IMG/VR virus record: IMGVR_UViG_2778261256_000004
Span: 1-22,473 of that record
Strand: one strand, 5' to 3'
Origin: a virus
Lineage: Duplodnaviria > Heunggongvirae > Uroviricota > Caudoviricetes
DNA length: 22,473 nt
The translations under genes and the position numbers were made by a program. Shown here in pieces: positions 20,592 through 21,418 of this stretch. The number at the start of each line of letters is the position of its first letter. The stretch's first letter is position 1. The notes under the pieces were generated by a model. That model searched no databases. It was given only the letters and a program-made list of their open reading frames with translations, and had not been told where the DNA came from.

Positions 20592-20837
20592 TTGGCTGAG
20601 CGTGTTGATGATGCAGAGCTGAGCATGAATCAGTTAGAAGCTCTCAAAGACATGGCCATCGATAACATCAGAAAGCAGGCACAGGTCGTGAGTCAGGTAT
20701 TTACAGGGAAGTGTCGTTACTGCAATGAATCGATTGAATCAGGCATTTATTGTGACGCTGAATGTGCGCAATGGCACAGGGAAGAGCAGGCAGCAAAACA
20801 GCGTAAATATGGCATGCGACCGGCAGGATTTGACTGA
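20592..20837 (+). CDS. Small protein with C-terminal zinc-ribbon (CxxC ... CxxxC)
   Basis: The track frame starts at TTG 20592; an ATG at 20625 gives 70 aa. Motif CRYCNESIESGIYCDAECAQWH. The stop lies 2 bp before the next gene. Confidence 0.5.
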   Translation: MAERVDDAELSMNQLEALKDMAIDNIRKQAQVVSQVFTGKCRYCNESIESGIYCDAECAQWHREEQAAKQRKYGMRPAGFD

Positions 20838-20839
20838 TT

Positions 20840-21418
20840 ATGTTGCGCTTTACTGAGGAAGAGTTTCAGGCTTTTAGTGAGCGTCGAAATAAGGGGCGGT
20901 CCAGGCCAAAAACCAAAAAGGATCCATTCTTATCGCTTGCGCCGGTAAAAGAAGTTTCTCCACATGCGAAGGCACTTGCAGCACTGGCAAAAAATCCTGA
21001 TCTGCGAGTAGGAAATTGCGAGCACTACGAACAGGTTTTCATTTTTGATTACTTCGAGCGCAATTACCCTGAAATTTATGAGCTGTTGCATGCAACGCCT
21101 AACGGAGGGAAGCGTTCAAAAGCAACCGCCGGGAAAATGAAGGCTGAAGGGCAGAAAAAAGGTTATCCGGACATGAGTCTCGATAAAGCATGCGGTATTT
21201 ATCACGGCATGCGAATTGAGCTTAAAGAACCAAATGGTAAAGCCCCGACGAAAGAGCAGATTGCCTGGATGCGCAGGCTTAGAGAGGAAGGTTACTACGT
21301 TGTTCTTGCGTATGGTGCAGAACAAGCGATTACCGCCATCCTGGAATACATAAGCCTTAAAAAGGGTGAGGCTATTGAGCATGTATTGAACGGCGATAAG
21401 TGGTTGTATGCTGCTTAA
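20840..21418 (+). CDS. VRR-NUC domain nuclease (PD-(D/E)xK superfamily)
   Basis: 192-aa ORF with ATG at 20840. Block GYPDMSL ... GMRIELKEPNGKAPTKEQIAWMRRLREEGYYVVLAYGAEQAI matches the VRR-NUC catalytic core (D ... E-x-K), motif-level. Confidence 0.75.
   Translation: MLRFTEEEFQAFSERRNKGRSRPKTKKDPFLSLAPVKEVSPHAKALAALAKNPDLRVGNCEHYEQVFIFDYFERNYPEIYELLHATPNGGKRSKATAGKMKAEGQKKGYPDMSLDKACGIYHGMRIELKEPNGKAPTKEQIAWMRRLREEGYYVVLAYGAEQAITAILEYISLKKGEAIEHVLNGDKWLYAA

Follow-up and report, generated by a model that had tools for sequence, protein, structure and literature searches.

The 22,473-nucleotide (nt) window analyzed here, which is the whole stretch of DNA from positions 1 to 22,473 of the IMG/VR record IMGVR_UViG_2778261256_000004, contains on its plus strand two adjacent open reading frames (ORFs), at 20592-21418, that are the subject of this work; all coordinates are those of the window. 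The window represents a P1-like phage-plasmid, and at these ORFs its DNA is 97% identical to that of phage P1 and 95-97% identical to that of P7, SJ46, RCS47, and other P1-like phage-plasmids. By sequence, the two ORFs are the phage P1 genes pmgL and pmgM, named upf81.0 and upf81.2 in P7, with protein identities to the P1 and P7 orthologues of 96-98% (98% for PmgL against P1). The original prediction for this DNA had described a small CxxC...CxxxC protein followed after a 2-bp gap by a VRR-NUC nuclease, opening a plus-strand cluster upstream of GSGPS paralogs, and had proposed for the pair either recombination or DNA-processing functions or exclusion and anti-defence functions. Both ORFs are indeed found in this arrangement, with a gap of 2 bp between the pmgL stop codon and the pmgM ATG (Table 1). 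They head an operon transcribed divergently from the tail and baseplate genes 26-25-7-24-6 (P1 record AF234172), and the GSGPS proteins downstream are pmgO and pmgP. The explanation that we favor, with somewhat more than even confidence, is that PmgM is a branch or junction resolvase, that PmgL is a TraR-like modulator of RNA polymerase, and that the two are independent accessory functions.

Both ORFs evolve under purifying selection. Compared with homologues of 42-75% amino acid identity, the proportion of nonsynonymous differences (pN) is 0.24-0.43 for pmgL and 0.17-0.37 for pmgM, versus proportions of synonymous differences (pS) of 0.75-0.91 and 0.73-0.87, respectively. Given this excess of synonymous over nonsynonymous differences, the identity with P1, and the four cysteines that are invariant among 31 members of the PmgL family, the sequences identify pmgL and pmgM as real genes and not chance ORFs.

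Table 1. Genes and regulatory sites of the pmgL-pmgM region, in window coordinates
Feature	Position	Strand	Basis or remark
pmgL, 81-aa TraR/DksA-like zinc protein	20592..20837	+	ORF, TTG start, TGA stop ending 20837
pmgM, 192-aa VRR-NUC (PD-(D/E)xK) nuclease, putative Holliday-junction resolvase	20840..21418	+	ORF, ATG start
Late promoter LPpmgL	-22 element 20485-20493, -10 20498-20503	+	Position transferred from P1 annotation (predicted feature)
C1 repressor operator O26 (formerly Op82)	20518..20534	-	Overlaps predicted sigma-70 promoters P2pmgL, P1pmgL
C1 operator Oppp (formerly Op83), between pmgM and pmgN	21425..21441	-	P1 annotation; 16/17 bases = P1 site

The assignment of PmgM to the VRR-NUC nucleases, as originally predicted, was borne out by profile searches and structure prediction. 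A phmmer search of the PDB matched PmgM residues 79-180 to the VRR-NUC protein 4QBL (E = 5.2e-17), PHROG 5702 (“Holliday junction resolvase”) matched PmgM with E = 4.8e-27, and many PmgM homologues of 45-60% identity carry a precomputed match to the Pfam family VRR_NUC (PF08774). The AlphaFold2 (AF2) model of PmgM, built from 29 homologues, has a mean predicted local distance difference test (pLDDT) score of 85.5, and in Foldseek it retrieved 4QBL first (target template modeling [TM] score of 0.81, E = 6.6e-10), next the other stand-alone VRR-NUC structures 4QBN and 4QBO, and then FAN1. The modeled fold is of the alpha/beta type seen in restriction endonucleases and agrees with the solved VRR-NUC structures. 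Residues E61, P110-D111, E127, K129, and Q140 are invariant in the 29 homologues, down to 37% identity. They make up the full PD-(D/E)xK site together with the Gln that contacts the catalytic Lys, a role described for the conserved Gln of VRR-NUC proteins (PMC4103454).

The structure 4QBL is that of psNUC from Psychrobacter, a dimeric enzyme that binds four-way junctions with sub-nanomolar affinity, cuts them symmetrically, and works alone in vitro (Pennell et al. 2014, PMC4103454). The same authors suggested for phage copies of VRR-NUC a function in recombination, replication, or packaging, similar to that of lambda Rap, T7 endonuclease I, and T4 endonuclease VII. Sequence and modeled fold place PmgM among the stand-alone VRR-NUC nucleases of the psNUC type, and by analogy with psNUC it most likely acts as a homodimeric, Mg-dependent resolvase of Holliday junctions and other branched DNA. 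RefSeq lists the P7 orthologue as “Holliday junction resolvase” and P1 PmgM as “VRR-NUC domain-containing protein.” In a Pseudoalteromonas contig (L007, 2097-3531), rdgC overlaps the start of the VRR-NUC homologue, which is an independent contextual link to recombination. The first 55 residues of PmgM (20840-21000) consist of an MLRF(T/S)EE motif and a basic linker of low model confidence; this segment is kept from E. coli to Pseudoalteromonas, is absent in psNUC, and might serve as a docking peptide or as an additional arm for binding DNA.

For PmgL, closely related sequences were of little help. A word-indexed search for close homologues returned P1-type sequences only, many of them frameshifted, and gave no functional clue, and a search of the PDB with the single sequence gave only chance matches to PHD fingers. 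An exhaustive HMMER search of a library of 1.84 billion representative proteins yielded 82 proteins at E <= 0.001, whose lengths fall almost without exception within 62-99 aa (one is 232 aa). PmgL, the sequence P0017, and 29 of these matches were aligned to define a family of 31 sequences with the consensus xxDxxDxA...I...R...TGxCxYCxE...(F/Y)CDxDC. In PmgL itself, an N-terminal helix bearing the acidic tip D6-x-x-E9-x-S11 is followed by a zinc knuckle with the cysteines C41-R-Y-C44, x9, C54-D-A-E-C58 (CxxC-x9-CxxxC) and by a C-terminal helix. All four cysteines are present in 31/31 members, the first Asp of the acidic tip in 29/31, and the second in 27/31, while the third position of the motif is A in 17, S in 6, and T in 4. 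In most members this motif stands at the extreme N terminus, 30-35 residues ahead of the first Cys; TraR has D3-x-x-D6-x-A8, followed by 34 residues to C37.

The likeness to TraR extends to profile searches. All members (31/31) matched PHROG 54, “DksA-like zinc-finger protein”; PmgL did so with E = 1.6e-12 over nearly the whole profile and TraR with E = 2.2e-20, while YacG, another CxxC...CxxxC protein, gave no match. When the family hidden Markov model (HMM) was run against the PDB, the best sequence match was TraR in its complex with RNA polymerase (5W1S_M, E = 0.0033). In hhalign, the family alignment matched a TraR alignment with a probability of 95.6% and E = 1.1e-8 over 63 columns, covering TraR residues 1-71 with both Cys pairs and placing an 8-residue deletion in the zinc loop. 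The AF2 model of PmgL (pLDDT 81.8) has a helix of 26 residues (7-32), a knuckle (33-55), and a second helix (56-73), and so contains the three-part plan of TraR, which consists of an N-helix of about 26 residues (2-27), a globular zinc part (28-57), and a C-helix (58-73) (PMC6970531). As judged from these comparisons, PmgL is a divergent relative of TraR that probably works like TraR. The label “Zn ribbon” that had been given to it stands as far as a small zinc-binding protein is concerned, and the notion of a generic ribbon gives way to a divergent TraR/DksA-like protein. PmgL-family proteins of other phages already bear the PHROG-derived name “DksA-like zinc-finger protein,” and P1 PmgL does not.

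In pmgL, TTG is the sole in-frame start upstream of the acidic motif, GAGG lies eight bases before it in both P1 and P7, and relatives that start with ATG retain the five-residue lead before the motif. For these reasons the 81-aa product was accepted, whereas P7 annotates the product from Met12. In many database copies pmgL is frameshifted, at three or more positions (20700-20856) and always into the same +1 frame (ORF 20725-20856). The products are chimeras of 80-88 aa (e.g., P0027, P0033, and P0011) that have lost the zinc knuckle and terminate 17 nt into pmgM. These sequences suggest repeated decay of pmgL, although some cases may be assembly errors.

The distribution of the two genes was then compared among relatives. 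Both genes are present in a metagenomic contig, a Salmonella plasmid, a Logan contig, and Cronobacter phage JK004 (PmgM identity of 62-75%); in each case the PmgL-like gene either overlaps the nuclease gene or is separated from it by 0-3 nt. PmgM homologues of 55% identity or less occur without PmgL in Enterobacter, Yersinia, and E. coli D6-like elements, where other small ORFs or nothing are found upstream; in Pseudoalteromonas, rdgC takes the upstream position and not PmgL. Conversely, in Erwinia, Vibrio, Achromobacter, Yersinia, and Pseudomonas phages the PmgL-family genes belong to early or replication modules: their neighbors are methylase, primase, helicase, and small early genes, and no VRR-NUC gene adjoins them. 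A candidate small nuclease downstream of the PmgL-like genes of the Erwinia and Vibrio phages gave nothing in Pfam. The distant contexts were drawn from annotated phage records because the 80 loci kept from viral contigs, which were found with the family alignment, were all near-identical relatives of P1. Since the adjacency is limited to close P1 relatives and each gene is found elsewhere without the other, we conclude from these sequences that pmgL and pmgM specify two separable accessory functions in one operon. Of the recombination or DNA-processing role first proposed, the part that concerns PmgM fits, its nearest solved relative being a proven Holliday-junction resolvase, and the part that concerns a functional pair is not upheld.

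In distant P1/D6-like phage-plasmids (L004, L005, L006, L008, L009, L090, and L094), the VRR-NUC gene closely follows darB, a giant anti-restriction gene, and two small conserved genes of about 145 aa and 85 aa. P1 appears to be a rearranged form, because the VRR-NUC gene adjoins the tail gene 26 in P1 and in the window and darB in these relatives. In one of them, a Yersinia ruckeri contig (L008, 3573-4145), the last 4 bases of the VRR-NUC gene are shared with a gene that encodes a Tad2-like domain (PF11195, from a Thoeris anti-defence family).

Published phenotypes are available for both genes. P1 phages with in-frame deletions of pmgL or pmgM form infectious virions and normal plaques, and they retain the parental plating on EcoA, EcoB, and EcoK hosts (Gonzales et al., PMC9024508). 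The published plating on these three hosts excludes an anti-restriction role against type I systems. In a CRISPR interference (CRISPRi) screen the plating efficiencies were 1.3 for pmgL and 0.38 for pmgM, and both genes were scored as non-essential (PMC10695390). The names PmgL and PmgM are absent from the main text of the P1 virion-proteome paper, including its table of detected proteins (PMC9024508), and the main text of a P1 RNA sequencing (RNA-seq) preprint does not report on pmgL or pmgM. Because the deletions are viable, CRISPRi scores the genes as non-essential, and the proteins are unnamed in the main text of the virion-proteome paper, the label “morphogenetic” is best regarded as a placeholder.

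The region upstream of pmgL that carries the promoters and operators annotated in P1 is retained in the window in a gap-free alignment. The promoters were placed from the P1 annotation because a simple promoter and terminator scan of the region found nothing beyond the shuffled background. The -22 element of LPpmgL is identical to that of P1, and the -10 element differs by one base (ATTATT in the window, AATATT in P1). According to the P1 annotation, LPpmgL and the divergent late promoter LP26 stand back-to-back and have this -22 element in common. O26 fits the C1 operator consensus at 15/17 bases, is identical to P1 at that position, and is annotated as an operator in both the P1 and the P7 records. 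Sites with the C1 consensus number 4 in the window, versus 0.1 expected. Three other close matches to the C1 operator lie at 6930-6946 and 10452-10479, the latter being an overlapping divergent pair.

From these features we infer a course of events that covers expression timing, polymerase binding, junction cleavage, and the roles in vivo. The operon would express pmgL and pmgM once C1 repression is lifted, and again from the late promoter, with the two genes co-transcribed and possibly translationally coupled. The acidic-tipped N-helix of PmgL would enter the secondary channel of the host RNA polymerase and damp host promoters such as the rRNA promoters, shifting host transcription as lambda Orf73 does. 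This role would be one of tuning the phage yield and would be non-essential. Given the shortened zinc loop and the CxxxC second pair, PmgL lacks the loop with which TraR contacts beta-prime Si3 (E46, R49, and K50), and with this loop missing it may inhibit without activating. PmgM would dimerize and resolve Holliday junctions and other branches that arise as P1 DNA replicates and recombines. The removal of branches would make P1 concatemers ready for headful packaging and would aid recombination, and host resolvases may cover the loss of PmgM, hence its dispensability in the laboratory.

Several observations weigh against this explanation. For PmgM, the Pfam match to VRR_NUC scores 21.1 bits, slightly short of the cut-off of 23.8 (E = 3.3e-4), and covers only the C-terminal half of the model, the N-terminal extension of about 55 residues has no counterpart in psNUC, and the protein has no reported phenotype, so that a debranching role rests on analogy. 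For PmgL, the CxxC-x9-CxxxC pattern fails the canonical TraR motif CxxC-x17-CxxC because its zinc loop is shorter. No family member (0/31) matched Pfam PF01258 at E <= 1, and NCBIfam TIGR02419 matched two other family members only, not PmgL, with 15-16 bits against a cut-off of 59.7. A Foldseek search with the PmgL model gave no significant match and did not recover TraR, the best matches being MYND and YacG at E > 1; the fold search thus neither confirms nor refutes the likeness to TraR that the profiles point to. In the P1 lineage the tip is also imperfect, having Glu and Ser at its second and third positions, and is preceded by five residues versus 2 in TraR; imperfect motifs, as in P2 Orf82 and Gp34, and N-terminal extensions have been linked to weaker activity (Gopalkrishnan et al., PMC9239242). 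Because of the reservations on the zinc motif, PF01258, TIGR02419, Foldseek, and the tip, PmgL was not placed in the curated TraR family. The recurrent frameshifted alleles of pmgL count on the same side, as does the 0-3 nt spacing kept in P1 relatives despite saturated synonymous sites, which would fit a functional link between the genes.

This spacing is a pointer to a single functional unit, in which PmgL would serve the nuclease as a subunit for DNA binding, targeting, or regulation and the pair would work jointly in recombination or DNA processing: every P1-like relative with both genes has the 0-3 nt spacing or an overlap, and the genes have their operon and promoters in common. We consider such a unit unlikely, given that the more distant PmgM homologues of P1/D6-like phage-plasmids and Pseudoalteromonas have no PmgL, that the PmgL-family genes of five phage groups have no adjacent nuclease gene, that psNUC is active alone in vitro (PMC4103454), and that the homology of PmgL points to a binder of RNA polymerase. 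The same spacing in P1-like phages would allow a coupled system, in which PmgL in the secondary channel of the host RNA polymerase recruits or licenses PmgM at stalled transcription complexes, R-loops, or transcription-replication collisions on replicating P1 DNA, so that an adaptor bound to polymerase would be tied to a structure-specific nuclease; the separate distribution of the genes elsewhere counters it, and we regard it as very improbable. Doubt about PmgL could also be taken in another direction, toward a treble-clef adaptor of the YacG/MYND type for a partner other than RNA polymerase, e.g., gyrase, with the likeness to TraR reduced to the shape of a helix plus a knuckle. YacG is also a CxxC...CxxxC protein, Foldseek places 37 columns of the PmgL model on gyrase-bound YacG (4TMA_K) at 1.8 A, the Pfam family DUF2116 (“probable treble clef”) is weakly matched by 16/31 members, and PmgL weakly matches VATC. 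The Foldseek match is, however, not significant (E = 3.8), the Pfam scores are under the cut-off, and DUF2116 reaches at best E = 2.7e-4 among those 16 members and does not match PmgL itself at E <= 1. An adaptor of this kind is unlikely, since PHROG 54 is matched by TraR and PmgL and not by YacG, the profile-profile match to TraR spans the N-helix, both Cys pairs, and the C-helix, and a DxxDxA-type tip at the extreme N terminus is specific to secondary-channel factors.

The exclusion or anti-defence role that had been put forward would have the PmgM nuclease act against host, competitor, or defence DNA, with PmgL as inhibitor or targeting factor. VRR-Nuc domains can indeed be toxins, as in the TseV effectors of the type VI secretion system (PMC9635880), the cluster lies in relatives just downstream of the anti-restriction gene darB, and a Tad2-like gene overlaps the nuclease gene in one Yersinia element. 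However, neither PmgL nor PmgM was matched by PADLOC, the deletion phages plate normally and keep the parental EcoA, EcoB, and EcoK phenotype, the closest relative of PmgM resolves junctions and is no toxin domain attached to a module for delivery, and the linkage to darB is shared synteny within one phage group that is absent in P1 and in the window. We therefore give little credence to this role, and a defence module was rejected given the PADLOC result, the unchanged type I plating, and the confinement of the pairing to close P1 relatives. A part in virion morphogenesis, after which the genes were named (pmg, putative morphogenetic function), would agree with the late promoter upstream and the adjacent tail and baseplate operon. 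It is scarcely credible and was rejected as already largely refuted by the normal plaques of the in-frame deletions and the CRISPRi result; the homologies, moreover, are to a nuclease and a transcription factor, and neither name appears in the main text of the virion-proteome paper. A resolvase and a TraR-like modulator acting independently remain the explanation to which we give more weight than to its negation.

The P1 cluster (window 20592-22473 and, for the downstream P1 genes, L001 4193-7741) comprises pmgL (TraR-like), pmgM (junction nuclease), pmgO and pmgP (MptE-like, annotated as sialyltransferase-like), ppp, and pmgQ. The ppp product is 64% identical to the NinI phosphatase of lambda, according to the P1 record, and the gene mix resembles the accessory content of lambdoid nin and exo-xis regions. 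In the window, pmgN (21452-21640) is a 62-aa ORF from the ATG at 21452, versus 51 aa annotated in P1, and it overlaps the start of pmgO. It was scored as essential by CRISPRi (plating efficiency of 0.014) and is non-essential by deletion, a discrepancy that may come from a polar effect or an overlapping element. The match to P1-type plasmids ends at 22396/22397, within pmgP (22142-22473), which is the second GSGPS paralogue. Like an insertion sequence, the 77 bases that close the window have matches in thousands of unrelated plasmids, and they are probably an end of IS10. The insertion leaves about 85 codons of pmgP and could have a polar effect on ppp and pmgQ.

Although P1 is a workhorse of E. 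coli genetics, pmgL and pmgM are still labeled as having a “putative morphogenetic function.” Both genes had been named in P1, and the nuclease domain is annotated in RefSeq; what is new here, from sequence comparison, is the explicit link between P1 PmgL and TraR, the description of a short-loop subfamily, and the evidence that the pairing is lineage specific. If PmgM is a resolvase, P1 has its own debranching enzyme, which matters for the preparation of concatemers for headful packaging and possibly for generalized transduction. If PmgL is a functional factor of the TraR type, P1 joins lambda, P2, and VP882 as a phage that uses the secondary channel to reprogram host RNA polymerase, and the compact CxxC-x9-CxxxC variant lacking the beta-prime Si3 loop would be a natural minimal version with which to tell inhibition and activation apart. 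Both roles would be accessory and dispensable in the laboratory, and the gain is a sharper annotation and not a new kind of system.

Compared with known systems, PmgL resembles TraR in size (81 aa versus 73 aa), in its acidic-tipped N-helix of about 26 residues, in its four cysteines, and in its C-helix, and differs from it in the zinc loop, shorter by 8 residues, and in the CxxxC second pair. Lambda Orf73 and P2 Orf82 are the phage homologues of TraR to which we liken it, and Orf73 raises the phage yield 3-4 fold in a manner that depends on D3 and D6 (PMC9239242). PmgM shares with psNUC the fold and the catalytic E, D, E-x-K, and Gln, and its region between strands 1 and 2 aligns with the elaborated linker of psNUC; it differs in the extra N-terminal residues, and the identity is about 30%. 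Lambda Rap (NinG), RusA, T4 endonuclease VII, and T7 endonuclease I have the same proposed role, the clearing of branches for recombination and packaging, and belong to folds or families unrelated to PmgM. T4 endonuclease VII is required for packaging, whereas pmgM is dispensable. The gene order, the 2-bp spacing, the promoters, and the C1 operators are as in P1 and P7, and the element of the window, with its interrupted pmgP, is a relative of P1 and not P1 itself. The NinI-like phosphatase of the P1 cluster recalls a nin region, and pmgL and pmgM would be comparable to the mixed accessory genes of the lambdoid nin regions rather than to a two-component system.

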